This document shows, in pieces, positions 2,916 to 55,381 of a DNA stretch of 64,000 nt. This DNA is from Shigella phage Sf25, in sequence record MF327009; one strand, given 5' to 3'. Positions within the stretch are counted from its first letter, which is position 1; each line of letters opens with the position of its first letter. The notes beneath the pieces were generated by a model. It was not told the origin of the DNA. It saw nothing but the letters and a program-made list of their open reading frames with translations, and did no database searches. A program made the position numbers and the translations under genes.

Positions 2916-3271
2916 TCGTCTTTAAACAATCGGTTAACTATATGAGCTATTATATCACCATGACACGGCTTTGGTTTACATGTGCATCCTAGCCTCATTC
3001 CACGTAAAGGCTCTAAATGTGCTTTAGTTATTTCTCCGGATTTAATTCGACGTATAAAATCTTTTTTGAATAATTCAATGGCAGCCTCCCGGCTCGTCTT
3101 TAAACAATCGGTTAACTATATGAGCTATTATATCACCATGACACGGCTTTGGTTTACATGTGCATCCTAGCCTCATTCCACGTAAAGGCTCTAAATGTGC
3201 TTTAGTTATTTCTCCGGATTTAATTCGACGTATAAAATCTTTTTTGAATAATTCAATGGCAGCCTCCCGGC
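2916..3271. repeat. Exact direct tandem duplication, 2 x 178 bp, spanning the 3' end of a small ORF just upstream of the nrdA start
   Basis: cgtctttaaacaatcggttaactatatgagc... recurs at 2917 and 3095. Confidence 0.9.
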
Positions 3272-6441: not shown

Positions 6442-6887
6442 TACTTTTTGAAAGTTTTTCGCAAAAGTTCAATGATTTCATCTACATTGTTTTCGTCAAC
6501 AATGCAGTGAATTTTTGTTACGCCAGAAACCTTGTCTATGACTTCATCTACATTGTTTTCGTCAACAATGCAGTGAATTTTTGTTACGCCAGAAACCTTG
6601 TCTTTGACTTCATCTTCTTCAGAAGTCGGTTCTTTATACTCACGAAAACAATGAAATTCATCTTCGCAAATTTCTAAAAGTCTATCTTTGAGGTAAAAAT
6701 GCTTTCCATTTGCGCATTCAATGTGTTTTACTGCTTTATATCCATTAGCGACGGAAACTTCTTTAACTTCAAACCATCCGCCATTATCTCGAATAGCTTT
6801 AACGATTGATGAATTAGAACGTGGGCTATAATTAATAAATGTATCAATAAGTCTTGGAACAAGTTCATACTTTTTGCCAATATACAT
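6441..6887 (-). CDS. Hypothetical protein carrying an in-frame 22-aa tandem repeat
   Basis: ORF track 148 aa; DKVSGVTKIHCIVDENNVDE repeated. Confidence 0.55.
   Translation of the reverse strand: MYIGKKYELVPRLIDTFINYSPRSNSSIVKAIRDNGGWFEVKEVSVANGYKAVKHIECANGKHFYLKDRLLEICEDEFHCFREYKEPTSEEDEVKDKVSGVTKIHCIVDENNVDEVIDKVSGVTKIHCIVDENNVDEIIELLRKTFKK
6477..6608. repeat. Near-exact direct tandem duplication, 2 x 66 bp
   Basis: ttcatctacattgttttcgtcaacaatgcagtgaatttttgttacgccagaaaccttgtct occurs at 6477 and 6543. Confidence 0.85.
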
Positions 6888-8212: not shown

Positions 8213-8310
8213 TTTTATTTCCTTTTTAATTTAATTAACAGTTGGTGCTATGACGATGTATGACCTCATAGCTGGTCAGTGAGATAATTATAATCTATTT
8301 ATAATAAGCA
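8213..8310 (-). promoter_or_regulatory. Gene 32 5' control region: A/U-rich leader (candidate autoregulatory operator) plus overlapping late (TATAAATA, 8296-8303) and MotA-box-like middle promoter elements
   Basis: Minus strand reads TTGCTTATTATAAATAGATTATAAT ... AATTAAATTAAAAAGGAAATAAAAATG. Confidence 0.5.
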
Positions 8311-8311
8311 A

Positions 8312-9136
8312 TTAATACTTGCAAGATTTCACAGTTTCAATAAAAACTTTTTTAGCTTCCTGTGAATCAATATTTAAAATTTTTCTATAAGCCTTTAACT
8401 TTATAGAATAATTATTCCAAACTAAATTATCAGTTTGTTGATCATGTTTATCAATTATATTTAAAAACGAATCAAGCAAGATAAACGTCTCAAACGAAAT
8501 TATGTTCGATTGCAGAAGTTTAAAAATATAACTTGACTGAACTTTTGGATTATACTCAAAAATTTCTTTAAAAGCAGAAACTTCAACTTTTTTACTAAAA
8601 TAATAAATGTTGCGAATATCTTCTTCAAACTTAAATTTAATTTGCTTTAAGCGTCCGATATATTCACGATAAAACACAAGTGCATCAGCGTCAGAGATGT
8701 CACCAATCCAAGCATCTTGGTTAGCAACCAAATTGCTTATAAAGATTAAAGCAAGTTCCTTTAATTTATATTTTTCTGATAACTTCTGGAAAAAATACTT
8801 ATCCCTTCGATTAGTTTTTTCACAACGAACAACAGAAGGACGTAAAAGATTTTCGTCGATAGCTTCTGACTGAATTTTTTCAATTATACCCGAAGGAATA
8901 AATTTAGCAAATTGAGTTTCAGGAATAGAATTTTCTTCTAAGAACGCTGTTGTAGCTTCAAGATAACTCATTCCAAACTCTTCTACCATTTTTTCAATAA
9001 TAAATCCATTTTCTTGGCGGTCAAGAAGCTTTGCTATTTCATCCTTTTCTTTCTTAATTGAAAGTTCTTTTTCTGAAAGACCGGTCTCATCGACCGGACG
9101 AATATCATTTAGAGAAAACTGTGTCATAAAGTTCAA
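8312..9136 (-). CDS. Apparent in-frame fusion ORF: acidic N-terminal part (gp33-like late transcription factor) joined to basic C-terminal part (gp59-like helicase loader)
   Basis: 274 aa; junction near 8806-8812 (...RCEKTN/RRDKYFFQ...); only one ORF between dsbA and gene 32 where T4 has two genes. Confidence 0.55.
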   Translation of the reverse strand: MNFMTQFSLNDIRPVDETGLSEKELSIKKEKDEIAKLLDRQENGFIIEKMVEEFGMSYLEATTAFLEENSIPETQFAKFIPSGIIEKIQSEAIDENLLRPSVVRCEKTNRRDKYFFQKLSEKYKLKELALIFISNLVANQDAWIGDISDADALVFYREYIGRLKQIKFKFEEDIRNIYYFSKKVEVSAFKEIFEYNPKVQSSYIFKLLQSNIISFETFILLDSFLNIIDKHDQQTDNLVWNNYSIKLKAYRKILNIDSQEAKKVFIETVKSCKY

Positions 9137-10404: not shown

Positions 10405-13400
10405 ATGGCCGAGATTAAAAGAAAGTTCAGAGCAGAAGATGGTCTGGACGCAGGTGGTGATAAAATAATCAACGTAGCTTTAGCTGATCGTACCGTAGGA
10501 ACTGACGGTGTTAACGTTGATTACTTAATTCAAGAAAACACAGTTCAACAATATGATCCAACTCGTGGATATTTAAAAGATTTTGTAATCATTTATGATA
10601 ACCGCTTTTGGGCTGCTATAAATGATATTCCAAAACCGGCAGGAGCTTTTAATAGCGGACGCTGGAGAGCATTACGTACCGATGCTAACTGGATTACAGT
10701 CTCATCTGGTTCATATCAATTAAAATCTGGTGAAGCTATTTCGGTTAACACTGCAGCTGGTAATGATATTACATTTACTTTACCATCTACTCCAATTGAC
10801 GGTGATACTATCGTTCTCCAAGATATTGGAGGAAAACCTGGAGTTAACCAAGTTTTAATTGTAGCTCCAGTACAAAGTATTGTAAACTTTAGAGGTGAAC
10901 AGGTACGTTCAGTACTAATGACTCATCCAAAGTCACAGCTAGTTTTAATTTTTAGTAATCGTCTGTGGCAAATGTATGTTGCTGATTATAGTAGAGAAGC
11001 TATAGTTGTAACACCAGCAAGTCTCTATCAGGCGCAATCTAATGATTTTATCGTACGTAGATTTACTTCTGCTGCACCAATTAATGTTAAACTTCCAAGA
11101 TTTGCTAATCATGGCGATATTATTAATTTCGTTGATTTAGATAAACTGAATCCACTTTATCATACAATTGTTACTACATACGATGAAACGACTTCAGTAC
11201 AAGAAGTTGGAACTCATTCCATTGAAGGCCGTACATCGATTGACGGTTTCTTGATGTTTGATGATAATGAGAAATTGTGGAGATTGTTTGACGGGGATAG
11301 TAAAGCACGTTTACGTATCATAACGACTAATTCAAATATTCGTCCAAACGAAGAAGTTATGGTATTTGGTGCAAATAACGGAACAACTCAAACGATTGAG
11401 CTTCAGCTTCCAACTAATATTTCTGTTGGTGATACTGTTAAAATTTCCATGAATTACATGAGAAAAGGACAAACAGTTAAAATCAAAGCTGCAGGTGAAG
11501 ATAAAATTGCTTCTTCAGTTCAATTGCTGCAATTCCCAAAACGTTCAGAATATCCGCCTGAAGCTGAGTGGGTTACAGTTCAAGAATTAGTTTTTAACGG
11601 TGAAACTAATTATGTTCCAGTTTTACAGCTTGCTTATATAGAAGATTCTGATGGAAAATACTGGGTTGTACAGCAAAATGTTCCAACCGTAGAAAGAGTA
11701 GATTCTTTAAATGATTCTACTAGAGCAAGATTAGGCGTGATTGCTTTAGCTACACAAGCGCAAGCTAATGTCGATTTAGAAAATTCTCCGCAAAAAGAAT
11801 TAGCAATTACTCCAGAAACATTAGCTAACCGTACTGCTACAGAAACTCGTAGAGGTATCGCAAGAATAGCAACTACTGCTCAAGTGAATCAGAACACCAC
11901 ATTCTCTTTTGCTGATGATATTATCATTACTCCTAAAAAGCTGAATGAAAGAACTGCTACAGAAACTCGTAGAGGTGTTGCTGAAATTGCTACGCAACAG
12001 GAAACTAATGCAGGTACTGATGATACTACAATCATCACTCCTAAAAAGCTTCAAGCTCGACAAGGTTCTGAATCATTATCAGGTATTGTAACCTTTGTAT
12101 CTACCGCGGGAGCTACTCCAGCTTCTAGTCGTGAATTAAATGGTACAAACGTTTATAATAAAAACACTAATAATTTAGTTGTTTCGCCTAAAGCTCTAGA
12201 TCAGTATAAAGCTACTCCAACGCAGCAAGGTGCAGTAATTTTAGCAGTTGAAAGTGAAGTAATTGCTGGACAGAGCCAAGAAGGATGGGCAAATGCGGTT
12301 GTAACGCCAGAAACGTTACATAAAAAGACATCAACTGATGGAAGAATTGGATTAATTGAAATTGCTACACAGTCTGAAGTTAATACAGGAACTGATTATA
12401 CTCGTGCAGTCACTCCTAAAACTTTAAATGATCGTAAAGCAACTGAAAGTTTAAGTGGTATAGCAGAAATAGCAACACAAGTTGAATTCGACGCAGGCGT
12501 CGACGATACTCGTATCTCTACACCATTAAAAATTAAAACCAGATTTAATAGTACTGATCGTACTTCTGTTGTTGCTCTATCTGGATTAGTTGAATCAGGA
12601 ACTCTCTGGGACCATTATACCCTTAATATTCTTGAAGCAAATGAGACACAGCGTGGTACACTTCGTGTGGCTACACAAGTTGAAGCTGCTGCAGGAACAT
12701 TAGATAATGTTTTAATAACTCCTAAAAAGCTTTTAGGTACTAAATCTACCGAATCGCAGGAAGGTGTTATTAAAGTTGCAACACAAACTGAAACTGTTGC
12801 TGGTACATCATCTAATACTGCTGTATCTCCAAAGAATTTAAAATGGATCGTGCAGAGCGAACCTACTTGGGCAGCTACAACGGCTATAAGAGGATTTGTT
12901 AAAACTTCTTCTGGTTCTATTACTTTCGTTGGTAATGATACTGTTGGTTCAACACAACCTTTAGAATCATATGAAAAAAATAGCTATGCTATATCTCCAT
13001 ATGAATTAAACAGAGTATTAGCTAACTATTTACCATTAAAAGCCAAAGCAGTTGATAGTAATTTACTCGATGGTCTAGATTCACTCCAGTTCATTCGTAG
13101 GGACATCGCCCAGACAGTTAATGGATCACTAACCTTAACGCAACAAACGAATCTGAGTGCCCCTCTTGTATCATCTAGTACTGCTACGTTTGGTGGATCA
13201 GTTTCTGCTAATAGTACATTGACTATTTCTAACACAGGAACAGCTACTCGACTGATTTTTGAAAAAGGACCTCAGACTGGAACAAATCCGGCTCAAACGA
13301 TGACTATCAGAGTTTGGGGAAATGAGTTTGGAGGTGGTTCTGATACATCACGTTCAACTGTATTTGAAGTTGGTGATGAAACGTCTAATCACTTCTATTC

Positions 13401-14274
13401 GCAACGTAATAAAGCTGGTAATATTGTTTTCAGTATTAATGGTACTGTAATGCCAATAAATGTGAATGCTTCGGGTTCATTGAATGCTAATGGTGTTGCA
13501 ACATTTGGTAGTTCTGTTACTGCTAATGGTGAATTCATCAGTAAATCAGCAAATGCTTTTAGAGCAATAAATGGTGATTACGGATTCTTCATTCGTAATG
13601 ATGGTGGAAACACCTATTTCATGTTAACTGCTTCTGGTGATCAAACTGGTGGATTTAATGGATTAAGACCTTTAGCAATAAACAATACATCAGGTCAAGT
13701 TACAATCGGTGAAGGATTAATTGCAGCAAAAGGTGTTACGATAAATTCTGGTGGTTTGACTGTTAACTCGAGAATTCGTTCTCAAGGTTCTAAAACTGCT
13801 GATTTATATACTCGTGCTCCTACTGCTGATACAGTCGGATTCTGGTCAATTGACATTAATGATTCAGCTACATACAACCAATTCCCTGGTTATTTTAAAA
13901 TGGTTGAAAAAACTAATGAAGTGACTGGGCTTCCATACTTAGAACGTGGTGAAGAAGTTAAATCTCCTGGTACTTTGACTCAGTTTGGTAATACTCTTGA
14001 TTCACTTTACCAAGATTGGATTACTTATCCAATAACTCCTGAAGCACGTACAACCCGTTGGACACGTACTTGGCAGAAGAATAAAAATTCATGGTCAAGT
14101 TTTGTCCAAGTATTTGATGGTGGAAACCCTCCTCAACCTTCTGATATTGGTGCTTTACCTTCTGATAATGCAATAATCGGAAACTTGACAATAAGAGATT
14201 TCTTAAGGATTGGTAACGTCCGCATTATTCCAGATCCTGTGACTAAATCAGTTAAATTCGAGTGGATTGAATAA
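10405..14274 (+). CDS. 34: Long tail fibre proximal subunit gp34
   Basis: 1289 aa; internal imperfect TATETRRG repeats typical of the fibre shaft. Confidence 0.93.
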   Translation: MAEIKRKFRAEDGLDAGGDKIINVALADRTVGTDGVNVDYLIQENTVQQYDPTRGYLKDFVIIYDNRFWAAINDIPKPAGAFNSGRWRALRTDANWITVSSGSYQLKSGEAISVNTAAGNDITFTLPSTPIDGDTIVLQDIGGKPGVNQVLIVAPVQSIVNFRGEQVRSVLMTHPKSQLVLIFSNRLWQMYVADYSREAIVVTPASLYQAQSNDFIVRRFTSAAPINVKLPRFANHGDIINFVDLDKLNPLYHTIVTTYDETTSVQEVGTHSIEGRTSIDGFLMFDDNEKLWRLFDGDSKARLRIITTNSNIRPNEEVMVFGANNGTTQTIELQLPTNISVGDTVKISMNYMRKGQTVKIKAAGEDKIASSVQLLQFPKRSEYPPEAEWVTVQELVFNGETNYVPVLQLAYIEDSDGKYWVVQQNVPTVERVDSLNDSTRARLGVIALATQAQANVDLENSPQKELAITPETLANRTATETRRGIARIATTAQVNQNTTFSFADDIIITPKKLNERTATETRRGVAEIATQQETNAGTDDTTIITPKKLQARQGSESLSGIVTFVSTAGATPASSRELNGTNVYNKNTNNLVVSPKALDQYKATPTQQGAVILAVESEVIAGQSQEGWANAVVTPETLHKKTSTDGRIGLIEIATQSEVNTGTDYTRAVTPKTLNDRKATESLSGIAEIATQVEFDAGVDDTRISTPLKIKTRFNSTDRTSVVALSGLVESGTLWDHYTLNILEANETQRGTLRVATQVEAAAGTLDNVLITPKKLLGTKSTESQEGVIKVATQTETVAGTSSNTAVSPKNLKWIVQSEPTWAATTAIRGFVKTSSGSITFVGNDTVGSTQPLESYEKNSYAISPYELNRVLANYLPLKAKAVDSNLLDGLDSLQFIRRDIAQTVNGSLTLTQQTNLSAPLVSSSTATFGGSVSANSTLTISNTGTATRLIFEKGPQTGTNPAQTMTIRVWGNEFGGGSDTSRSTVFEVGDETSNHFYSQRNKAGNIVFSINGTVMPINVNASGSLNANGVATFGSSVTANGEFISKSANAFRAINGDYGFFIRNDGGNTYFMLTASGDQTGGFNGLRPLAINNTSGQVTIGEGLIAAKGVTINSGGLTVNSRIRSQGSKTADLYTRAPTADTVGFWSIDINDSATYNQFPGYFKMVEKTNEVTGLPYLERGEEVKSPGTLTQFGNTLDSLYQDWITYPITPEARTTRWTRTWQKNKNSWSSFVQVFDGGNPPQPSDIGALPSDNAIIGNLTIRDFLRIGNVRIIPDPVTKSVKFEWIE

Positions 14275-14282
14275 GAGGTATT

Positions 14283-15398
14283 ATGGAAAAATTTATGGCA
14301 GAGTTTGGACAAGGATATGTCCAAACTCCATTTTTATCGGAAAGCAATTCAGTAAGATATAAAATAAGTATAGCGGGTTCTTGCCCGCTTTCTACTGCAG
14401 GGCCTTATGTTAAATTTCAAGATAATCCTATTGGAAGTCAAACATTTAATGCAGGTCTTCATTTGAGAGTTTTTGATCCTACATCAGGGGCGTTAGTCGA
14501 TAGTAAATCATATGCATTTTCATCATCTAACGATACGACATCAGCTGCTTTTATTGATTTTATGAATTCAATTTCATCTAATAGAATAGTTGCTATATTA
14601 ACAAGTGGAAAAGTTAATTTCCCTCCTGAAGTAGTTTCTTGGTTAAGAACAGCAGGAACATCTGCTTTTCCATCTGATGCTATATTATCTAGATTTGATG
14701 TTTCATACGCAGCTTTTTACACTTCAGTAAAACGGGCAATCGCGTTAGAACACGTTAAATTAAGTAATAGAAAAAGCACAGATGATTATCAAACTATACT
14801 AGATGTAGTATTTGATAGCATAGAAGATGTTGGAGCAACAGGTTTTCCAAAAAGAACTTATGAAAGCGTTGAACAATTTATGTCAGCAGTTGGTGGAACA
14901 AATAATGAAATAGCGCGTTTACCTACTTCAGCCGCAATAAGTAAACTTTCTGACTACAATTTAATTCCTGGCGATGTTCTTTATCTTAAAGCACAGTTAT
15001 ATGCTGACGCAGATTTATTAGCATTAGGAACTACTAATATTTCAATTCGTTTTTATAACTCATCAAACGGATATATTTCTTCAACCCAAGCTGAATTTAC
15101 AGGACAGGCTGGATCTTGGGAATTAAAAGAGGATTATGTGGTTGTTCCAGAAAATGCAGTTGGATTTACGATATATGCACAGAGAACTGCTCAAGCAGGA
15201 CAAGGCGGCATGCGAAATTTAAGCTTTTCTGAAGTATCAAGAAATGGTGGAATTTCAAAACCCGCCGAGTTTGGTGTTAATGGTATTAGAGTTAATTATG
15301 TCTGTGAATCTGCTTCACCTCCTGATATAATGGTACTTCCAACACAATCGTCTACAAATACTGGAAAAGTTTTTGGACAAGAATTTAGAGAAGTTTAA
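14283..15398 (+). CDS. 35: Long tail fibre hinge (knee) protein gp35
   Basis: 371 aa; position and size. Confidence 0.85.
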   Translation: MEKFMAEFGQGYVQTPFLSESNSVRYKISIAGSCPLSTAGPYVKFQDNPIGSQTFNAGLHLRVFDPTSGALVDSKSYAFSSSNDTTSAAFIDFMNSISSNRIVAILTSGKVNFPPEVVSWLRTAGTSAFPSDAILSRFDVSYAAFYTSVKRAIALEHVKLSNRKSTDDYQTILDVVFDSIEDVGATGFPKRTYESVEQFMSAVGGTNNEIARLPTSAAISKLSDYNLIPGDVLYLKAQLYADADLLALGTTNISIRFYNSSNGYISSTQAEFTGQAGSWELKEDYVVVPENAVGFTIYAQRTAQAGQGGMRNLSFSEVSRNGGISKPAEFGVNGIRVNYVCESASPPDIMVLPTQSSTNTGKVFGQEFREV

Positions 15399-15403
15399 AC
15401 TGA

Positions 15404-15430
15404 GGGAGCCTTCGGGTTCCCTTTTTCTTT
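15404..15430 (+). terminator. Intrinsic terminator or processing hairpin with UUCG tetraloop between 35 and 36
   Basis: GGGAGCC-TTCG-GGTTCCC followed by TTTTTCTTT. Confidence 0.6.
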
Positions 15431-15437
15431 ATAAATA
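15430..15437 (+). promoter_or_regulatory. Late promoter TATAAATA for gene 36
   Basis: Exact TATAAATA 24 nt upstream of the gene 36 ATG. Confidence 0.65.
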
Positions 15438-15460
15438 CTATTAAAATAAAGGGGCATACA

Positions 15461-16126
15461 ATGGCTGATTTAAAAGTAGGTTCAACAACTGGAGGCTCTG
15501 TCATTTGGCATCAAGGAAATTTTCCATTGAATCCAGCCGGTGACGATGTACTCTATAAATCATTTAAAATATATACAGAATATAATAAACCACAAGCAGC
15601 TGATAACGATTTCGTTTCTAAAGCTAATGGTGGTACTTACGCTTCAAAGGTAACATTTAACGGTGGCGTGCAAATACCATATGCTATAAACAATACAAAC
15701 CAAAGCGGTATTTTTCCTGGTAATGGTGATGCTGCTACTTTTGCTACAGCAAATATTGATATTGTTTCATGGTATGGCATTGGTTTTAAATCATCACAAG
15801 GATCTGCAGGTAGAACTGTAGTAATTAATGCACGTAATGGCGATATTAGCACAAAAGGCGTTGTATCTGCTTCAGGACAAGTAAGAAGCGATATGACTGC
15901 TCCAGTTGCAGCAAATGATCTCACAAGAAAAGATTATGTTGATGGAGCAATAAATATTGTTACGGATAACGCAAATTCACGTGTATTGCGTAGAGGCGAT
16001 ACTATGACTGGAAATTTAACAGCTCCAAACTTTTTCTCACAGAATCCAGCGTCTCAACCTTCACATGTTCCACGATTTGATCAAATTGTTATTAAGGATT
16101 CTGTTCAAGATTTCGGCTATTATTAA
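15461..16126 (+). CDS. 36: Long tail fibre distal connector gp36
   Basis: 221 aa. Confidence 0.88.
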   Translation: MADLKVGSTTGGSVIWHQGNFPLNPAGDDVLYKSFKIYTEYNKPQAADNDFVSKANGGTYASKVTFNGGVQIPYAINNTNQSGIFPGNGDAATFATANIDIVSWYGIGFKSSQGSAGRTVVINARNGDISTKGVVSASGQVRSDMTAPVAANDLTRKDYVDGAINIVTDNANSRVLRRGDTMTGNLTAPNFFSQNPASQPSHVPRFDQIVIKDSVQDFGYY

Positions 16127-16134
16127 GAGGACTT

Positions 16135-19100
16135 ATGGCTACTTTAAAACAAATACAATTTAAAAGAAGCAAAACTGCAGGTCAACGTCCTGCTGCTTCA
16201 GTATTAGCCGAAGGTGAATTGGCTATAAACTTAAAAGACCGTACTCTTTTTACTAAAGATGACTCGGGAAATATTATTGATTTAAGCATTTCTGCCGGTG
16301 GTAACATTAGTGGAAATATCACTCAAAATGGTGATTATTTACAAAACGGCACGTATAATCTTAATGGAAATCAGTTTGTTTATGCAGGAAAGTATATTGA
16401 ATTCTTGCCAAAAACTGCTGGAAATGGTGCTTGGGCAAATCAGCACACAAATAAAGCTCCAATTTTCACCGATTTGAGTTCAACTACTTCAACTTCTGAA
16501 TATCATCCGCTAATTAAACAACGTTATAAAGATGGAACGTTTTCATTAGGGACTTTAGTTTCTGAAGGCTCAATGAAGATACACTATATCGATGAAACTG
16601 GCACTTCAAAATATTGGACTTTCCGACGTGATGGTGGTTTTGTTGTTGATAGTGGTAGTTTAACTGTTACTGCTGGAAACATATCTGCTTCAGGCAATAT
16701 TAATTCGGCATCAGGGGTTGTTTCAGCTCCTCAAATTAATACAAAAACCATTGTTTTAGATACAAAAGCATTTGGACAATATGATTCGCAGTCATTAGTT
16801 CAGTATGTTTATCCTGGCACTGGCGAAACAAACGGTATAAACTATCTTCGTAAAGTTCGCGCAAAATCAGGTGGTACAATTTATCATGAAATAGCTTCAG
16901 CTCAAAGTGGAAAAAGCGATGAAATTTCGTGGTGGACTGGAAATACAGCCGTTAATAAACAAATGGGTCTTCGTAATGATGGTGCAATGGTATTACGTCG
17001 TTCACTTGCTATTGGCACAATTACTACAGATGAAAACGTAAATAACTATGGATCTGCTGGAGCAATGGGAGAAAAATACATTGTTCTTGGAGATGCGTCA
17101 ACTGGACTAGCTTATAAAAAGACAGGAGTTTATGACTTAGTTGGTAGTGGTTTATCTGTTGCTTCTATCACTCCCGACAGTTTTCGTAGTACCCGTAAAG
17201 CAATTTTTGGACGTTCTGAAGACCAAGGCGGTACATGGCTTCTTCCTGGTCAAAACGCTGCTCTTCTTTCAGTTCGTACAGATATTGATCAAAATAATAA
17301 CGGTGATGGTCAAACTCATATTGGATATAATAGTAACAGCAAGTTTTATCATTATTTTAGAGGCAGAGGCCGAATGGCTGTTGGAATGGCTGAAGGTCTT
17401 ATTGTTGAGCCTGGAATTTTAGATATTAAAACTGGTTCAAATACTGTTTCTATTAGAGCTGATGGCGGAATTTCATCTACTCAGCGTCTTTCATTGCAGA
17501 ATGGTATATTTTTATCTTCTGACGGAAATAACAACGGTATATCGTTTAAAGCTTCTAGCAGTATAGATGGAACTAAAACTCTTAATTGGGATGCTGGTAC
17601 TCGTGCAGGTCAAAACAAAAATACAGTAATTTTAAAAGCATGGGGAAATTCATTTAATACAAGTGGTGGAACTGATAGACATACTGTATTTGAAGTTTCT
17701 GATTCGCAAGGATACTACTTTTATGCTCAACGTACTACCCCTGCATCCGGTCAAACAGTAGGTCCTATTAATTTTAAATTTAATGGTACTGTAGAAACCG
17801 GTCATATCAATGGATTAGGTAATATTACTTTATCTGGGGCAGTTATAGCAGATTCTGCTAATATTAAAGGACCGCTAAAAATATCTAATGCTAATACAGC
17901 TGATGCTTTTAGAATATGGAACGCTGAATATGGAGCCATTTTCCGTCGTTCAGAAACATCATTGCATATTATTCCTACACTTAAAGATGCAGGGGAAAAT
18001 GGTGGAATAAGTAATCTTCGCCCATTAAGTATTGATCTTTCAAACGGATTTGTGCAAATGCATCATTCTCTTTCTGTGGGGAATACAGTAAGAACGAATG
18101 GATTGTTTGCTGTGGATACTTCAGCTGCTCTTGTTGCAATTAACAGATGTTCCTATTGTGAAACAAAGATACGTTCAAGGGAATAGCACCTATTCATTAG
18201 GTACTTTAATTAATGGTGGTGATTTCCGTTTACATTACCATGAAGGCGGTGACAGTTCTTCAACAGGTGCAGTTATAAAAGATATTTCCTGGGAATTTAA
18301 ACGTAATGGTGATTTCTATTCGCCAGGTCGTTTACGTACAGGAAATATCTATATTGGAACTGATGGTAATATCACGGGTGGTTCTGGTAACTTTGCTAAC
18401 TTGAATACAACTTTAAACCGTAAAGTTAATTCTGGTTTTATTACTTATGGAGCAACTGCAGGTTGGTACAAGTTTGCAACAGTAACAATGCCTCAAGCTA
18501 CATCAACCGTTTCAATTACAGTCACTGGCGGAAATGGATTTAATTCTGGATCATTTAATCAGTGTGCAATTTCTGAAATTGTTCTTCGTACAGGAAACAA
18601 TAATCCTCTGGTGATACATATGACATTTATGTTAATATGGGAACATATGCTAATCAGTTGATATTTAACTATAGTTCTGTTGATAATGCCACAGTTCAAA
18701 TTATTGGCGCATTCAGTTCAGCTCAAAATCCTGTTGATGCATTGCCAGAAACATATGTTAAAGGTCAGGTAGCAGATGTATTGACTAACTTAGTTGATTC
18801 TGGAAAAACGAAGCGTTTTGTTGCTGAATCTGAAATAGCTATTAATAATCAAACTGGATTACGTATTACGAGTAATGGTGATAAATCTGGTTCAAATTCA
18901 GTATTATTCAGAAATGATGGATCAGCGTTTTATATTCTTTTAACAGATAAAAACGCAGCAGATGGAAATACGACTGCCACAGAAGGAGATTGGAATGGTA
19001 AACGTCCTTTCCAAATTAATATGACTTCTGGTGAAGTAACATTCGGAAATAATATTAATATTTCTGGAAACGGAAGCATTACTTGGACAAAAGCCGGAGC

Positions 19101-19770
19101 AAACCCTAGAAATATGAGAATATTTCATGCAGGTGATGCTTCTCGTGGTAACCGTATTGAAATCGCAGATGATACTAATTATATTGCTTACTTTGAAAAA
19201 ACTCCAGGTGGAGCTAACCGCTTTGTAGTTAATGGTGCTACTGTAGCTGGTGTTAATCAAATGAATTCATTTGGTATTAACATCAATAACGCGCTTGGTG
19301 GAAATAGTATAGCATTTGGTGATAATGACACGGGTATTAAGCAAAACGGCGATGGATTATTAGACATTTATGCGAATGGTGTGCAAACGTTCCGTTTCCA
19401 AAACGGTGATTTGTACTCATATAAAAATATAAATGCCCCAAACGTTTATATTCGTTCTGATATTCGCTTAAAATCTAATTTCAAACCTATCGAAAATGCA
19501 CTTGATAAAGTTGAAAAACTCAATGGTGTCATTTATGATAAAGCTGAATATATCGGTGGAGAGGCAATTGAAACTGAAGCGGGTATTGTGGCTCAAACGT
19601 TACAAGACGTTTTACCAGAAGCCGTCCGTGAAACAGAAGACAGCAAGGGTAATAAAATACTCACTGTTTCTTCTCAAGCCCAGATTGCTCTTCTGGTTGA
19701 AGCTGTGAAAACGCTTTCTTCTCGTGTAAAAGAACTTGAATCTAAACTTCTTGAATCTAAACTTATGTAA
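16135..19770 (+). pseudogene. 37: Long tail fibre distal subunit gp37 (T2-type with C-terminal intramolecular chaperone domain), interrupted by two frame changes (frame 1, +1, frame 1)
   Basis: Three ORF-track pieces 16135..18186, 18098..18661, 18637..19770, each with fibre-like sequence; C-terminus ...IRSDIRLKSNFKPIENALDKVEKLNGVIYDK. Confidence 0.6.
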
Positions 19771-19773
19771 AAG

Positions 19774-19791
19774 AGGGCTTCGGCCCTCTAA
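19774..19791 (+). other. UUCG-tetraloop RNA hairpin between genes 37 and 38
   Basis: AGAGGGC-TTCG-GCCCTCT, followed by AAGGA RBS. Confidence 0.5.
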
Positions 19792-19800
19792 GGATTTTTA

Positions 19801-20498
19801 ATGGCAATTGTAGGTGTTCCTGGCTGGATTGGTGAATCTGCCGTGAATGAAACAGGACAGCGTTGGATGGATGCTGCAATGAGAGCAGTCCGTGTTTCAG
19901 TTCCCGGTTGGATGAGCTCAATGGCCGGACAATCTAAAGAAGTATATTATAGCATTGGTGCTAGTAATTCTTATAATAAAGATACATTAATAAACTGAAT
20001 GCATACGTGACACTTAATATCAATTCAGGCGTGCATGTTTGGGGCCGTGGCGGGAATGGCGGAAATAACTCTGCCGGTGGAGCAGGAGGAACTGCAATAA
20101 ATAATGGAATTGGAACTAGATTGCGTATTAACAACAATGGTGTTATCGCAGGAGGCGGTGGCGGCGGTGGAGGCGGATATTATTCTCCTTTTTCACAAAT
20201 GAAATTGACTTTTGGCGGTGGCGGCGGTCGTCCATTTGGTGCTGCTGGCGGGTCTGCTAATATGGAACAGGGCGCTACTGCTGGTACTATTTCTGCACCT
20301 GGTAAAGGGTCTGTCAATGGTATCTATAATGGCGGGAATGGCGGTGATGCTGGTGCCGCAGGTGGTAAATGTAATATTCGTGGGCAAGGATCAGAATATA
20401 ACGGCGGTGCGGCCGGTAAAGCTGTTACTGGTAATGCTCCAACTTGGACTAAGGTTGGTACAATATATGGCCCTCTGATATTCTATTTGGTGTTCTAG
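19801..20498 (+). pseudogene. 38: Receptor-recognising adhesin gp38 (T2-type, glycine-rich motifs), split into two reading frames
   Basis: N-terminal 65-aa ORF (MAIVGVPGWIG...) ends at a stop at 19996-19998; the glycine-rich part (GGGGGGGGYY...) follows in another frame from 20007. Confidence 0.55.
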
Positions 20499-20503
20499 AT
20501 CGC

Positions 20504-25575: not shown

Positions 25576-25679
25576 TAGTAGATAACAACACAAATGTTAA
25601 ATATGCACACATACCCTGGGCTAAAGCTTGAAATTATTACGATAGAACTGCATCACATGTTCGTTATGGAAATTACTCA

Positions 25680-26138
25680 TTAATATGCCTGCAAAACAAA
25701 TTTAAAGTTATCAGCCAACATACGGTTCATTTCTTCAAGTGTTTGATACTCAGAATGATGATTACGAGTAAACGCTAAAGCTAACTGTCCTTTTCCAAAT
25801 CCCGTCGTCAGAGGTTTCATCTTAGAAGCAGGCAGATAAAATACTGTGTATACCATATTGTTATTTGCAATAGTACGTGCAAGCTGAGACCGACGTTGAC
25901 GAATATGACTTAGAACTGCACTGAATCCTTGCTTAGAACGCTGATTACCTACATAAAATCGTGCAGACACACATGGATTACTAAATGGACGACCATCTAA
26001 TTTACTTACTAAAAAGTAAAATCCAGGTTTAGATAAAATATCTTTATGCGGAGTTCCCAAAAACCACTCACCACCCTTGATTGTACCAATAACAGTTGCG
26101 CCTGCATTATTCAGATCAGTAACAGTCATATATTTCAT
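25680..26138 (-). CDS. ndd: Nucleoid disruption protein Ndd
   Basis: Start [13 protein letters not shown] with GAGGA RBS; about 152 aa. Confidence 0.8.
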
Positions 26139-26529: not shown

Positions 26530-26718
26530 TTATTTTACACCATTCCAAATTGTTTCAACTACAGATTTTAAGCCATTTTGATGAATGTCCATTCCGACTA
26601 CCGCCATCAAATAGATTCCAACTACGTTTAACATATCAATCATTAAAACGATTGGGAATATACTCAAAACTACTAGTATTATAACTACATTCCATATAGC
26701 TTTAATAATCTTTTTCAT
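26530..26718 (-). CDS. Small membrane protein
   Basis: Start MKKIIKAIWNVVIILVVLSIFPIVL with GGAGG RBS; 62 aa. Confidence 0.5.
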   Translation of the reverse strand: MKKIIKAIWNVVIILVVLSIFPIVLMIDMLNVVGIYLMAVVGMDIHQNGLKSVVETIWNGVK

Positions 26719-29330: not shown

Positions 29331-31757
29331 TTAGGCCGCAAGGGCCTTCATAGTTTTAGCGATTTGAGAAACTTCATCATCACTTAAAGAGTTGCGATAA
29401 CCGATGAAGTCGGAAACAATACGGAATTTCTTGGTAAACTCAGCAACCATTTTATCACTGTTTTTTGAAGCATTATTTGATAATACATCAAAAAGATTAG
29501 TTACTGTCCAGATGTCATGACCGATGGTACCTTTTCCACCGTTGAAATATACGCCCCGCAATGAACTAACTATATTAGCGAGTCGTGTATATTCTTCAGA
29601 AACTTCATCTGTACTGAAGTACTTCATCATAAAATCTAGTTCAGGATACTTGATAATTTTATCAATATATCGTTGAGCTGAACTTGAATAACCTACGTAC
29701 TTATCATAATCTACATCATCAAAAGCATCTACATATAAATCACGCAGAGTTTCAAAAATACATTGGCACTGACCGAGTTCTTTTACCTTTTTCTGCAAAA
29801 GCGGACGAATAACATAAAATTCATTAATGCCAATAAGATTAGCCATACGAATCAAAATATTCATAGATGGATGACAAAGAGATGTAGTACCATCCATAGA
29901 GAAAATATCAGAACGATGCATATACGCTACATAACCAGTAATTTCATCTGCTTCTGATGTGAGCGTAAACAGTTCCTCTTTTTCCCATCGCCCATCTTTA
30001 ATTTCAAACTTAAATGCTGTAGCAGCTTTAGGACGAGGAGCTTTACTTTTAACTACCTTTGGAATATAGCTTTTAACTAAAGCTTCAATTTCTGACAAAT
30101 AATGAATGTTAACTTCATCACTTTCAAACATCGCCATAATATCAGGAAGTAAATCAATCTGCGATTCTACTTCTGGATTAATAAACAGAAGACGCTCATT
30201 GTGATGAATATTCAAAGTGTTATTAAATTCACTATCATCTAACGCATGTGCTAATCCACGAACAATATTAACACGATTTTTAATATTATCAATAACGATA
30301 TTAATTTTTGTTGTATTAATACCAAACAGACGATAACTTGATGCAACGGCTGAAGTTTCATGACTTTGCTTAATGCGTTTCAGTCGAGGGTCAAGATTTA
30401 CTTCATACACAACTCCTGCATTGCATAACTTACTGTCAGGTTCAAACATGCTCTGCATCTTTTTATATGACAGATTTTTAGTCGTGAATTTGACTGAATT
30501 ACTAATCATATAATCTCGAGCAGAATATCCCATCTTCATCAATTCACGATATGTGTGACGAGGAGATGTAGATTCTTTAAATCGTTTTACATCTTCATTG
30601 AATGCCTTCTCACTAAGCTCTTTAACACGCTCAATAATATTTTTACGAGTACGATCATCTAGTGAAAGAGCTTCGCGTGATGGAGCAATATCAAGTGAAC
30701 CCATTGGAAACTTAATGTAATTCACTTCATTGCGAATGCTTAGCCAGTTACGGTCTCTAATAACACCATCGATAGGATAAACAATACCGCCATAGATAGC
30801 ATATAATCCACCACGATCAGGCCAGTATCTTTCTGGATTTACACCATAATAATCATCAAAATCAGGAAAATAATCAATTTCAATAATATTTTTACGAGTA
30901 CGATCATCTAGTGAAAGAGCTTCGCGTGATGGAGCAATATCAAGTGAACCCATTGGAAACTTAATGTAATTCACTTCATTGCGAATGCTTAGCCAGTTAC
31001 GGTCTCTAATAACACCATCGATAGGATAAACAATACCGCCATAGATAGCATATAATCCACCACGATCAGGCCAGTATCTTTCTGGATTTACACCATAATA
31101 ATCATCAAAATCAGGAAAATAATCAATTTCGCGGTCAAGACCATTAATGATAGCCAAATCTTTGAACGGTCGCATGATATAAGAAACTTCATAAGCAAAG
31201 TTTCTAAAGTCTTTTTCTTCAACTGGAACTACGATTTCAATACCAGTTTTATCATCTGGACCCATTTCTTTTACGAATGTAGGTTTAATCTGTGGGCCAT
31301 CACCATCCATGTAAGCTACATAACCACGAATTTCACCTTTATGATACGAAGTAATACTAAACGTATCAGTATAACTAAACGGAGATTTAGAACCTAAACC
31401 AAATCCGCCAATAAAGTCATTAGATTCAGCCTTAGATGAACTGAAGTATGAATTATACAGCCCAGGAGAATTATCATCACCCTGAATATCAAAATCACTC
31501 ATACCCGGACCAAAATCTCGACAAACAAATCGTGGATCTAATCGTCCTGGAACTTGAATGATAAATTTTTCAGGATTTCCATTAAGTGCATGAGCATCAA
31601 TCATGTTAGTAATCAATTCACGGACTACTGCGCGAATCTTGTTTGTATACAAATCAGATGACAGAATTTTAAATACTTTAGGATTTGCTGCGATGCTAAA
31701 TGCTTTTGATTTAGAACCATTGCCAAGAATTGTTTCTTTTTCAGTGGTGATAATCAT
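29331..31757 (-). CDS. rIIA: rIIA protein; 808 aa including an 83-aa in-frame tandem duplication
   Basis: N-terminal GHKL-like ATPase sequence; peptide [25 protein letters not shown]...RTRKNII occurs twice. Confidence 0.9.
30632..31129. repeat. Exact direct tandem duplication, 2 x 249 bp, inside rIIA
   Basis: caataatatttttacgagtacgatcatctagtgaaagagc... begins at 30632 and 30881. Confidence 0.9.
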
Positions 31758-36723: not shown

Positions 36724-37223
36724 TAGTTTACATGAACATTAATCATTGCGCTGCGAGGAACTACGGAATACTCTCCAGCATGAACTACGTTCAGAAGTTC
36801 AACACCATTTTCAATCCATTGGTCAGTTACCCATCCATTTACTGGACCAGCGAATGGGCGTCGAATTGAAACATATTTACACAGCAGATCTGTAGGATCT
36901 GGAATTTTTTCAACTGGTGTTACATACATAGAAACTAAATCCATATCAATATGGGATTTTTCCTGTTCTTCTTTTTCAATTTCTGTCAATAAATTAAAAT
37001 CTTCTTCATAGATGATTAATGATGATACCTTTCCATAATAGTTTCTAATTTCCATGTACATCATACCAATGAGAATTCCATTATTAACACTAATAACAGT
37101 AAAAGGATATCCGCCAGTTGTACTAAGAAGTTCCCAAAACTTGCTATCAGTCGTATTCGACGTTGTCTGGAAATCAATTTCAGACGGTTTTTTCATTTGA
37201 TACGCAGCATTAATTTTAATCAT
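36723..37223 (-). CDS. Hypothetical protein, member 3 of the paralogous triplet
   Basis: 166 aa; C-terminal GWVTDQWIENGVELLNVVHAGEYSVVPR. Confidence 0.55.
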   Translation of the reverse strand: MIKINAAYQMKKPSEIDFQTTSNTTDSKFWELLSTTGGYPFTVISVNNGILIGMMYMEIRNYYGKVSSLIIYEEDFNLLTEIEKEEQEKSHIDMDLVSMYVTPVEKIPDPTDLLCKYVSIRRPFAGPVNGWVTDQWIENGVELLNVVHAGEYSVVPRSAMINVHVN

Positions 37224-42809: not shown

Positions 42810-42839
42810 ATCATATCATCGTTAGAAAGGAAAGTAAAC
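42810..42839 (-). promoter_or_regulatory. Putative early promoter for modB (GTTTAC-N18-TATGAT); part of it is re-created in the adjacent duplication
   Basis: Reverse complement GTTTACTTTCCTTTCTAACGATGATATGAT, then GGAGG RBS. Confidence 0.5.
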
Positions 42840-43228
42840 AACTTTTTGAATTATTTTGCCCAGGGAGCCCAAGGCGGAGGGTCAAGATGGTATGAAGCTA
42901 GTTCTTCTAGAAGAGCATCTGGGGCTTCAATTCCATAATTCTGTAATACTATACGGTACTCTTTCTTATAATCACTAGAATCATTCTGGTTATTCGTAGA
43001 ATGATTATCTTCTAACATTCATATCATCGTTAGAAAGGAAAGTAAACAACTTTTTGAATTATTTTGCCCAGGGAGCCCAAGGCGGAGGGTCAAGATGGTA
43101 TGAAGCTAGTTCTTCTAGAAGAGCATCTGGGGCTTCAATTCCATAATTCTGTAATACTATACGGTACTCTTTCTTATAATCACTAGAATCATTCTGGTTA
43201 TTCGTAGAATGATTATCTTCTAACATCT
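42813..43228. repeat. Exact direct tandem duplication, 2 x 208 bp, covering a promoter/intergenic region and most of a small ORF
   Basis: atatcatcgttagaaaggaaagtaaacaactttttgaattattttgcccagggagccc... begins at 42813 and 43021. Confidence 0.9.
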
Positions 43229-44557: not shown

Positions 44558-44899
44558 TCAATCGCAAGATGTAGATGAACAACTAGAATCGCAAGAACTT
44601 CCACACGAATCGCCCGTCCATACATGAACAGGAACATTAGTGTCATATGAATCAGAACTAGACTGTGTATTCTGCGTATTAGATGATGTAGTAGGTGTTG
44701 ACCAGCGCCAAGGATTTTTATAATATTCTTGGGCTTCTTCATAAGTCATAGTAACTGCTTCTACTGTTCCATCTCCCATATAAACATATTCAACTACAGT
44801 TAAAGGAAGGTAGTCATTTGAAATAGGAACTACACCTTCCCCAGGAGTCGTAGAGAAAAAATCCGTAAAGAAACTTTTAAACCAATTAAAGATAAACAT
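44558..44899 (-). CDS. Hypothetical protein with Ser/Cys-rich C-terminus
   Basis: 113 aa ending ...[18 protein letters not shown]. Confidence 0.45.
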
Positions 44900-45530: not shown

Positions 45531-46293
45531 TTAATAGCCTCGATCTTGACGAGCGAAGTTTTCAGCATTTTTCAGATAATAAAGTTTAAAGATTTCCTCA
45601 GCTGACATTCCAAGAGCAATGAATTTATTCATGAAAAAGTGAAATTGGTCAATCAGTTCAAATTTAATTTCAAGCTGATCTTCAGGAGATAAGTCTTGAA
45701 TTTTCTTGGATTGCATTTCAGAATAACGTTTCTTCCAAGGTTTCCATACAGCAGAAGCTTCTTTTTCACCATTACTCATACCACCAAGAGAAGTATATAG
45801 CTCGCGAGTTTCATCTGCGATATAATCGTCTTGGTTTCGCAACCAAGCAAGAACTTCTCCTGCAGTTTCAAGTGAATCAGGATGACGATTTGTTTCTGGT
45901 TTATCATTAGCCAAACGAATCTGTAAATGCCGCTGCATGTCAAATTTTCTTGGATTGCATTTCAGAATAACGTTTCTTCCAAGGTTTCCATACAGCAGAA
46001 GCTTCTTTTTCACCATTACTCATACCACCAAGAGAAGTATATAGCTCGCGAGTTTCATCTGCGATATAATCGTCTTGGTTTCGCAACCAAGCAAGAACTT
46101 CTCCTGCAGTTTCAAGTGAATCAGGATGACGATTTGTTTCTGGTTTATCATTAGCCAAACGAATCTGTAAATGCCGCTGCATGTCAAGCATAACCTGCAA
46201 TGGGTCAATACTGTGCATAATATACTCAGCATATGCACGATTTGCTTTATCAACACCTTCGATCAAATGAGCACATTCATTAAAGTGAGCCAT
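45531..46293 (-). pseudogene. 56: dCTPase/dUTPase gp56 (MazG-like) disrupted by a frameshifting 244-bp tandem duplication
   Basis: N-terminal frame MAHFNECAHLIEGVDK... (AAGGAAA RBS) terminates at the repeat junction near 45940; C-terminal part ...ALGMSAEEIFKLYYLKNAENFARQDRGY is in another frame. Confidence 0.6.
45700..46187. repeat. Exact direct tandem duplication, 2 x 244 bp (not a multiple of 3), inside gene 56
   Basis: attttcttggattgcatttcagaataacgtttcttcc... begins at 45700 and 45944. Confidence 0.9.
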
Positions 46294-46353
46294 TATTTTT
46301 CCTTTCAATTCATTAATAAGTTAAATAATTATATCATTTGAGTATGTAAGCAA

Positions 46354-47693
<1,340 letters not shown>

Positions 47694-47718
47694 TATATCA
47701 TCCTCAGCAATTTGTTTT

Positions 47719-47748
47719 ATAATACCATAACAAGCTGAGAAAGTAAAC
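47719..47748 (-). promoter_or_regulatory. Putative early promoter (GTTTAC-N18-TATTAT)
   Basis: Reverse complement TTGTTTACTTTCTCAGCTTGTTATGGTATTAT. Confidence 0.5.
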
Positions 47749-47786
47749 AAATTTATGATAAATATTAATTTAAAGGAGGACGACGC

Positions 47787-54536: not shown

Positions 54537-55381
54537 TCACCGTTATAATCTTTTTTCACAATATGAGTTTCGCCAGTATTCCACCAATGATCAACCAAGT
54601 AAAAATGACGAGAATATACATGAAGACTTCCAACATTCCATATAATAGAACCTGCTTTATACTGACGAGTTGAATCGCCGGCATTCAAATCAGATACTAA
54701 TTTATCTAATACGTATTTTTGCCATGCATAATCATTACGGAATCCGAAGACCACGTCATTTGAGCGCATGCTTACTACTGCATTGACTTTCTTATCACGA
54801 ATCAGGTACTGTACTGTATTAGTACACATGAAATCTGACATACCATCTTTATTGTAGTCAAATTGCATGGATGGACGAGTCATGCTTACTACTGCATTGA
54901 CTTTCTTATCACGAATCAGGTACTGTACTGTATTAGTACACATGAAATCTGACATACCATCTTTATTGTAGTCAAATTGCATGGATGGACGAGTATAAAT
55001 CATGATACCACGTCGAGAATCAGGATTTTGACCAAGTTCAGCTAAACACATATCATACTGGGCATAGTTATCTTCTGACCAAATAGCCCAACCATAATTC
55101 GAGTTAATTTCGCCTTTAGAAGATGCTACCTGCTGCCAAATCTTTGGTGTTTCGCCTGGAATATCTTTGACAAACAGACTTTGAGACTTGTACCATTCAA
55201 GTTCACGCTGAATGTATTCATCATTAAGAGCGCCAAAAATAAAGGGTTCATCTGCTACAAATGATGCGCCAATAATTTCAATAGTTTTAACACCGGTTTT
55301 ATCAACTACGAAATCTTTTTCTTTTAATGCAAGCCCCAAATGAAGACGGATTTCTTCAACTGTCATAAAGTCACTAATCAT
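54527..55381 (-). CDS. 42: dCMP hydroxymethylase gp42; 284 aa including a 38-aa in-frame tandem duplication
   Basis: ThyA-like fold sequence; peptide TRPSMQFDYNKDGMSDFMCTNTVQYLIRDKKVNAVVSM occurs twice. Confidence 0.9.
   Translation of the reverse strand: MISDFMTVEEIRLHLGLALKEKDFVVDKTGVKTIEIIGASFVADEPFIFGALNDEYIQRELEWYKSQSLFVKDIPGETPKIWQQVASSKGEINSNYGWAIWSEDNYAQYDMCLAELGQNPDSRRGIMIYTRPSMQFDYNKDGMSDFMCTNTVQYLIRDKKVNAVVSMTRPSMQFDYNKDGMSDFMCTNTVQYLIRDKKVNAVVSMRSNDVVFGFRNDYAWQKYVLDKLVSDLNAGDSTRQYKAGSIIWNVGSLHVYSRHFYLVDHWWNTGETHIVKKDYNGEWK
54767..54994. repeat. Exact direct tandem duplication, 2 x 114 bp, inside gene 42
   Basis: catgcttactactgcattgactttcttatcacgaatcagg... begins at 54767 and 54881. 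Confidence 0.9.

Follow-up and report, generated by a model that had tools for sequence, protein, structure and literature searches.

The stretch of DNA analysed here, 64,000 nucleotides in all and called the window below, carries the late operon 34-35-36-37-38-t of a T4-like phage, in which gp34 (10405-14274), gp35 (14283-15398) and gp36 (15461-16126) are followed by three fibre-like open reading frames (ORFs), situated between gp36 and gp38 (Table 1). The placement of this locus is flanked by tblastn matches of the gp34, gp35, gp36, gp38 and t proteins of Shigella phage Sf24. Sf24 gp37 itself, searched against the window by tblastn, matches with residues 1-680 in frame 1, with residues 728-882 in frame 2 and with residues 905-1287 in frame 1 again, each of the three matches having 90-99% identity and an E value reported as 0.0. 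An earlier note on this DNA had claimed that gene 37 changes frame twice in a compensating manner, and that all three pieces are fibre-like; both claims are borne out by these matches. The points at which it placed the switches, about 18130 and 18637, need to be corrected, as the true switches in homology lie at 18146/18147 and 18607/18608. These are referred to below as junctions J1 and J2, and we distinguish the three ORFs, which overlap, from the three pieces of gp37 homology that meet at the junctions.

Table 1. Coordinates of the gene 37 locus, the genes downstream of it and the structural lesions elsewhere in the window.
Feature	Position	Strand	Size	Remarks
ORF 1 of gene 37	16135-18186	+	683 aa	Frame 1
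ORF 2 of gene 37	18098-18661	+	187 aa	Frame 2
ORF 3 of gene 37	18637-19770	+	377 aa	Frame 1
gp37 piece 1	16135..18146	+		Frame 1; gp37 homology stops at 18146, out-of-frame tail runs to the stop at 18186
J1, blunt deletion	18146/18147	+	173 nt	Relative to PinkRuby, Sf24 and teqsoen; 0 nt microhomology
gp37 piece 2	18147..18607	+		Frame 2; natural mosaic allele
J2, blunt deletion	18607/18608	+	70 nt	Relative to PinkRuby, Sf24, teqsoen and 236Ecol005PP; 1 nt ambiguity/microhomology
gp37 piece 3	18608..19770	+		Frame 1; C-terminal intramolecular chaperone domain and ...NVYIR/SDIRLK... cleavage-site motif
Perfect tandem duplication, CTTGAATCTAAACTT x2	19735..19764	+	15 nt	In frame, adds ESKLL just before the gp37 stop
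gp38 adhesin, N-terminal piece	19801..19997	+		Frame 1; Pfam Gp38_N, E = 3e-19
Blunt deletion inside gp38	19997/19998	+	103 nt	Frame 1 to frame 3; relative to PinkRuby, Sf24 and teqsoen
gp38 adhesin, C-terminal glycine-rich piece	19998..20470	+		Frame 3; Pfam GP38 (PF05268), E = 1e-40
Blunt deletion, gp38/holin t junction	20470/20471	+	71-72 nt	Relative to relatives
Holin t without its first 9 codons	20471..21100	+		Pfam Phage_holin_T, E = 8e-114
Duplication	start 1651		249 nt	nrdA, +83 aa, in frame
Duplication	start 2916		178 nt	nrdA.1, frameshift
Duplication	start 30631		249 nt	rIIA, +83 aa, in frame
Duplication	start 42811		208 nt	modA.2, duplicated
Duplication	start 45699		244 nt	gp56 dCTPase, frameshift
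Duplication	start 54767		114 nt	gp42, +38 aa, in frame
Duplication	start 58837		147 nt	gp43 DNA polymerase, +49 aa, in frame
Blunt deletion	8812		173 nt	First 52 aa of gp59 and end of gp33 gone
Blunt deletion	25630		136 nt	
Blunt deletion	26607		128 nt	
Blunt deletion	41990		156 nt	modA, -52 aa
Blunt deletion	60190		139 nt	gp62 clamp loader, frameshift
Probable further deletions	25680, 44620, 45499			

Up to position 18146, the first piece of gp37 is 99.7% identical to Escherichia phage PinkRuby and 99.5% identical to Sf24 over its first 2012 nt, with no gaps, and in blastn the gap-free match to PinkRuby extends over window positions 14635-18146, also at 99.7% identity. The third piece is 98.4% identical to both phages, and the sole gap in its alignment is the 15 nt of the tandem duplication that precedes the stop codon. 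At its C-terminus lies a Pfam Peptidase_S74 domain (intramolecular chaperone, E = 8e-16). Fibres of the T2/S16 type release the chaperone domain by autocleavage and have the gp38 adhesin docked at their tip; the cleavage site is given as DVYIR^SDGRLKI (PMC7917993), which the motif in the window matches. The locus has the operon position of gene 37, homology to gp37 along its length, and Peptidase_S74 with its cleavage site followed by the gp38 adhesin (PF05268). What it lacks is a single uninterrupted ORF of ~1290 aa, the gene being divided instead among three ORFs (frames 1, 2 and 1). Gene 37 is here a member of the T2/T6-type gp37 family by descent, yet it is untranslatable as written, and the earlier note was right that full-length gp37 could not be made from this sequence.

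A megablast comparison of positions 16135-20500 with 50,697 phage records gave matches in 701 of them, the best being PinkRuby (97.6%), Sf24 (97.3%) and phage teqsoen (93.7%). Each of these three has 99% query cover, always in four pieces, and is ~330 nt longer in the record. Gene 37 in all three is a single ORF of 3864 nt (1287 aa), followed by a gp38 of 786 nt and a t of 657 nt, and in 236Ecol005PP gp37 is also one ORF, of 1307 aa. On the strength of these alignments, we take the window to be part of a T2/T6-type Tequatrovirus genome that is a close mosaic relative of Sf24 and PinkRuby.

Homology changes frame precisely at two deletion junctions. At J1, the reference phages PinkRuby, Sf24 and teqsoen read ...AATTAACAG / (173 nt) / ATGTTCCTATTG..., and the 173 nt are absent from the window. 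The suggestion that the first junction skips sequence is thereby upheld, the loss amounting to about 58 aa (Sf24 gp37 residues 671-729, SHSRVNANF...DRTDTSTY). The second junction had been taken for a 1-nt indel; it is actually a 70-nt deletion, found in the same place relative to four references, and removes about 24 residues (Sf24 gp37 residues 883-906, KGLNAVLYRRGLNSFRDIAWVNTS). Both deletions are defined against references that are 77-100% identical at the flanks, the exact uninterrupted allele not having been found. Alignment with T2/T6-type relatives of gene 37, which the earlier note had put forward as a check, sets a single intact ORF in the relatives against gaps of 173 and 70 nt here.

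The arithmetic of the two losses accounts for the order of the frames. Since 173 mod 3 is 2, frame 1 becomes frame 2 at J1, and since 70 mod 3 is 1, frame 2 turns back into frame 1 at J2; together, 243 nt or 81 codons are lost, so that the frame is restored after J2. Pasting the 173 and 70 nt of Sf24 into the window restores a single ORF of 1292 aa that is free of internal stops. The sequence of gene 37 indicates that it was intact very recently.

The piece between the two junctions is 88% identical to Sf24 and PinkRuby, with no gaps, and no phage in the collection searched is more than 89% identical to it. Its divergence is concentrated in the first ~200-260 nt (18147 to about 18400), identity to Sf24 being about 77% in the first 200 nt and 99.5% in the final 200 nt. 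Positions 18354-18607, the left flank of J2, are 97.6% identical to 236Ecol005PP, where the same 70-nt gap is found. A protein search with the divergent part returned two partial matches only (55-75% identity), and an exact 40-mer from it had no match in IMG/VR, nor had a 29-mer in the JGI metagenomes. When the piece is read in the gp37 frame, 31 of its 54 differences from Sf24 are in third codon positions, and the differing codons comprise 20 synonymous and 15 nonsynonymous ones. As the differences are mainly at third positions, the piece has the signature of a natural allele and was recently under selection within a working gene. It is a moderately new mosaic allele in an otherwise ordinary T2-type long tail fibre locus.

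Downstream of gene 37, the gp38 adhesin is split between two frames by a deletion whose size, given in Table 1, was set by exact string matching. The N-terminal piece is recognised by tblastn in addition to its Pfam domain, and the C-terminal piece is 99.2% identical to teqsoen. Through a further deletion at the junction between gp38 and the holin gene t, gp38 loses its last four codons and its stop, t loses its ATG and eight further codons, and the Shine-Dalgarno sequence between the two genes is lost as well. The remainder of the holin is 100% identical to that of Sf24, and its tblastn match begins at residue 10.

These lesions are not confined to the fibre genes. When the whole window was aligned to the homologous 68 kb of PinkRuby and 69 kb of Sf24, about 20 structural lesions were found in the 64 kb. 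The frame changes described in the earlier note are real, but they are not a property of gene 37: blunt lesions of the same kind also break gp38, t, gp59/gp33, gp56 and gp62. Seven of the lesions in the window are perfect (100%) head-to-tail duplications of 114-249 nt, with a spacing equal to their length, as identified with Tandem Repeats Finder and a repeat finder. As a control, perfect tandem duplications were counted in the homologous regions, where PinkRuby has none and Sf24 has one (265 nt). In addition, there are at least nine blunt deletions of 70-173 nt in the window, four of them in the fibre/holin region. The deletions at 8812, 19997, 20470, 25630, 26607, 41990 and 60190 sit in flanks ~100% identical to Sf24, and microhomology at the lesion junctions in the window is 0-3 nt. 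No inversions or translocations were detected, the alignment of the window having no minus-strand HSPs. A stretch of 261 nt at 36952-37212 that remained unaligned is simply divergent.

Between the lesions, the sequence follows Sf24 closely. Blocks that align with 0 gaps measure 9337 nt (99.69% identity), 8938 nt (99.78%), 5161 nt (99.19%) and 3810 nt (99.92%), and more than 27 kb of near-identical alignment to Sf24 is free of small indels. Genes that escaped the lesions encode proteins with about 97-100% identity to those of Sf24 (100% in most cases) and contain neither nonsense mutations nor small indels. Long gap-free blocks together with near-identical unhit genes argue that base-level quality is high and that only the structure is wrong, and an absence of small indels and nonsense mutations from genes so well preserved rules out both old decay and sequencing noise as the source of the lesions. 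The genes that are frame-broken or decapitated are gp37, gp38, t, gp56, gp62 and gp59/gp33. It is well established in T4 genetics that plaque formation requires gp37, t, gp56, gp62 and gp33, and also gp38 in T2-type phages. With so many essential genes broken at once, a phage with such lesions could not grow.

We consider it very probable that the split of gene 37 is one instance of a structural artefact of the record that runs through the whole window, and does not reflect phage biology, because the lesions are collinear, consist of overlaps or gaps only, have perfect copies and blunt ends, and are blind to gene function. On this reading, the split gene 37 is neither a tail-fibre pseudogene nor a recoding event. 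Such an artefact would most likely have arisen by the butt-joining of collinear pieces, for example contigs ordered on a reference: overlapping ends left unmerged would appear as perfect tandem duplications, and gaps left unmarked would appear as blunt deletions. The ceiling on the length of the duplications (249, 249 and 244 nt) would, we infer, fit 250-nt reads bounding the unmerged overlap of contigs. Deliberate or accidental editing of a good sequence would be an alternative origin, with an identical picture. The real phage would have one intact gp37 of ~1290 aa, from which the C-terminal chaperone is removed by cleavage, together with an intact gp38 adhesin docked on the fibre tip.

We also considered whether the breakpoints are changes of ancestry, as in strain-mixed contigs. 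This fits J1, where identity is 100% on the left and 77% on the right, and was rejected as a general rule; at J2, 8812, 20470, 41990 and 60190, identity to Sf24 is about 99-100% on either side.

Against an artefact, it can be noted that four of the lesions lie close together, within 2.3 kb of the hypervariable gp37/gp38 region, and that J1 abuts the divergent block, an arrangement that could alternatively be read as real recombination scars. Moreover, since the published genome of Sf24 has a perfect 265-nt tandem duplication of its own, a single event of this type is no proof of artefact.

Were the deletions genuine, the window would represent a defective T4-like genome, such as a non-viable variant that co-infecting helper phage sustain in a mixed population, or heavily rearranged DNA, and gp37, gp38 and the holin would be true pseudogenes. 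Illegitimate recombination is known to give rise to duplications and deletions in T4, and the clean junctions, the high base-level quality and the clustering of lesions in the hypervariable fibre region are compatible with such an origin. We nevertheless regard it as improbable, as it calls for ~20 independent homology-free events in 64 kb that leave the unhit genes otherwise undamaged, and for the joint loss of at least six essential functions. It also has to contend with duplications that are all 100% identical, with events of the overlap or gap type only and no inversions, and with microhomology that is at most very short. That the window is a non-autonomous 'cheater' T4-like genome, multiply deleted and duplicated and complemented by a co-infecting helper, seems to us highly improbable; if true, the fibre, adhesin and holin genes would have been inactivated by illegitimate, homology-free recombination.

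A further explanation would be natural allelic variation, with a legitimately shorter, differently organised distal fibre that is split into several proteins. The mosaic and hypervariable nature of gp37 speaks in its favour, as does the new allele in the middle piece. However, the second and third pieces have no ribosome-binding context of their own and start in the middle of domains, the breaks are out of frame, filling in from the reference restores one ORF, and cuts of this kind have destroyed gp38 and t too. Nor does the arrangement recur: neither the J1 and J2 junctions nor the three-ORF organisation is present in any of the 701 matching phage records, and 40-mers across the two junctions are absent from IMG/VR. 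Exact-product look-ups with the 683-aa ORF 1 and with gp34 likewise gave no match. A split fibre of this kind is thus scarcely plausible.

Even less weight can be given to programmed recoding, in which a +1 shift near 18146 and a return near 18607, or a bypass like that in gene 60, would produce a full-length fibre. The translational bypass of T4 gene 60 provides a precedent, and the two frame changes do compensate each other (243 nt, 81 codons). However, about 58 and 24 conserved fibre residues are absent from every frame, and frameshifting or bypassing cannot supply codons that are missing from the sequence. In agreement with the earlier note, which saw no frameshift signal, neither an X XXY YYZ heptamer nor a run of four or more identical bases occurs in the ORF overlaps (18098-18186 and 18637-18661), the second of which was scanned over 18600-18670. 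The two-frame arrangement is not conserved, as PinkRuby, Sf24, teqsoen and 236Ecol005PP each use one ORF, and lesions of the same type are found in unrelated genes. Finally, homopolymer indels are a frequent cause of frame changes in phage assemblies, but base-calling errors of 1-2 nt at both junctions have practically no chance of being the cause here and are refuted by the alignments, in which 173 and 70 bases are missing between gap-free flanks, with no homopolymers at J1 or J2 and no small indels in the >27 kb of alignment.

If the split of gene 37 is an artefact of the record, it means little biologically, as beneath the damage the long tail fibre locus is an ordinary one of the T2 type. 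The consequences are mainly for the use of the sequence. Any finding of a frameshift, gene fusion, internal duplication or missing start that is drawn from the window is suspect, and this applies to nrdA, nrdA.1, gp59/gp33, gp38, t, rIIA, modA, modA.2, gp56, gp42, gp43 and gp62. Should the sequence come from a public record, re-assembly is due before its fibre genes serve in the inference of host range.

The closest known counterparts of the locus are the gp37 genes of Sf24 (MF327008, AUV63109) and PinkRuby (PP925839, XNS39872), with which the window shares the synteny 34-35-36-37-38-t-asiA and a C-terminal Peptidase_S74 chaperone followed by a glycine-rich gp38 adhesin. It differs from them in that 173 nt and 70 nt are gone and gene 37 is spread over three ORFs (frames 1, 2 and 1), in the divergent allele from 18147 to about 18400, and in an additional tandem repeat of 15 nt ahead of the stop. 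The likeness to the gene 60 bypass of T4 and to programmed frameshifting is superficial, being limited to homology in more than one frame: the bypass skips extra RNA, whereas in the window sequence is missing and there is no slippery or take-off site. With mis-joined contig assemblies, by contrast, the window has in common perfect duplications of bounded length (with the maximum of 249 nt reached twice), blunt deletions, collinear events, high base accuracy, and a scatter of lesions that takes no account of gene function.

Perfect head-to-tail duplications recur over the window at seven sites, none of which is duplicated in the close relatives Sf24 (Shigella phage, MF327008) or PinkRuby (Escherichia phage, PP925839). 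Any "frameshift" or "internal duplication" finding in the seven genes concerned (nrdA, nrdA.1, rIIA, modA.2, gp56, gp42 and gp43) has the same artefactual origin, almost certainly a fault at the level of the record. The window also carries further blunt deletions outside the fibre region, and for those at 8812, 25630, 26607, 41990 and 60190 the flanking sequence is ~100% identical to Sf24. The deletions at 25680, 44620 and 45499 could instead be natural differences in gene content with respect to Sf24.

Perfect tandem duplications (head-to-tail, copies 100% identical; size is that of the unit) and blunt deletions outside the fibre region (size relative to Sf24)
Type	Gene	Window position	Size (nt)
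Duplication	nrdA	1651-2148	249
Duplication	nrdA.1	2916-3271	178
Duplication	rIIA	30631-31128	249
Duplication	modA.2	42811-43226	208
Duplication	gp56	45699-46186	244
Duplication	gp42	54767-54994	114
Duplication	gp43	58837-59130	147
Deletion	gp59 N-terminus and gp33 end	8812	173
Deletion		25630-25633	136
Deletion		25677-25680	~166
Deletion		26607-26625	128
Deletion	modA	41990/41991	156
Deletion	mrh.1	44620-44633	~162
Deletion		45499	337
Deletion	gp62	60190/60191	139

In the genes downstream of the fibre, a 103-nt deletion at 19997/19998 splits the gp38 adhesin, and another of 71-72 nt at 20470/20471 leaves gp38 without its stop and takes away the RBS together with codons 1-9 of holin t. At the 3' end of gp37 itself (19735-19764), shortly before the stop, there is a perfect 15-nt tandem duplication (CTTGAATCTAAACTT x2) that adds ESKLL and that neither Sf24 nor PinkRuby has. 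Natural slippage could have produced it, or it could belong, as a small event, to the same series of artefacts.

The middle gp37 piece, which lies in frame 2 between two deletions (18147-18607), is at most 89% identical over its whole length to any phage record among 50,697. Its first ~250 nt (18147-18400) are a divergent allele, of which the initial 200 nt match Sf24 at ~77% identity. This allele, a case of natural mosaicism in the shaft of the fibre upstream of its tip, is mildly new biology, and the region offers no other.

The published Sf24 genome contains one perfect tandem duplication of its own, of 265 nt (30091-30620 of the homologous Sf24 region; MF327008 92090-92619), for which the annotation gives a pair of similar genes, gp121 and gp122. 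The duplicated sequence is single copy in the window and in PinkRuby, and the duplication may be an assembly artefact of record MF327008.

Two other differences among these phages look like natural variation in gene content: the segG homing endonuclease (588 nt) of the gp32-gp59 interval is present in Sf24 and absent from the window (8275-8311) and PinkRuby, and the dam methyltransferase region of ~1.4 kb (46333-47777) is shared by the window and Sf24 and missing from PinkRuby. The window also holds a 66-nt tandem repeat of two copies (6469-6600), where both relatives have one copy only; with 97% identity between copies (2 mismatches), it is imperfect, unlike the seven perfect duplications.
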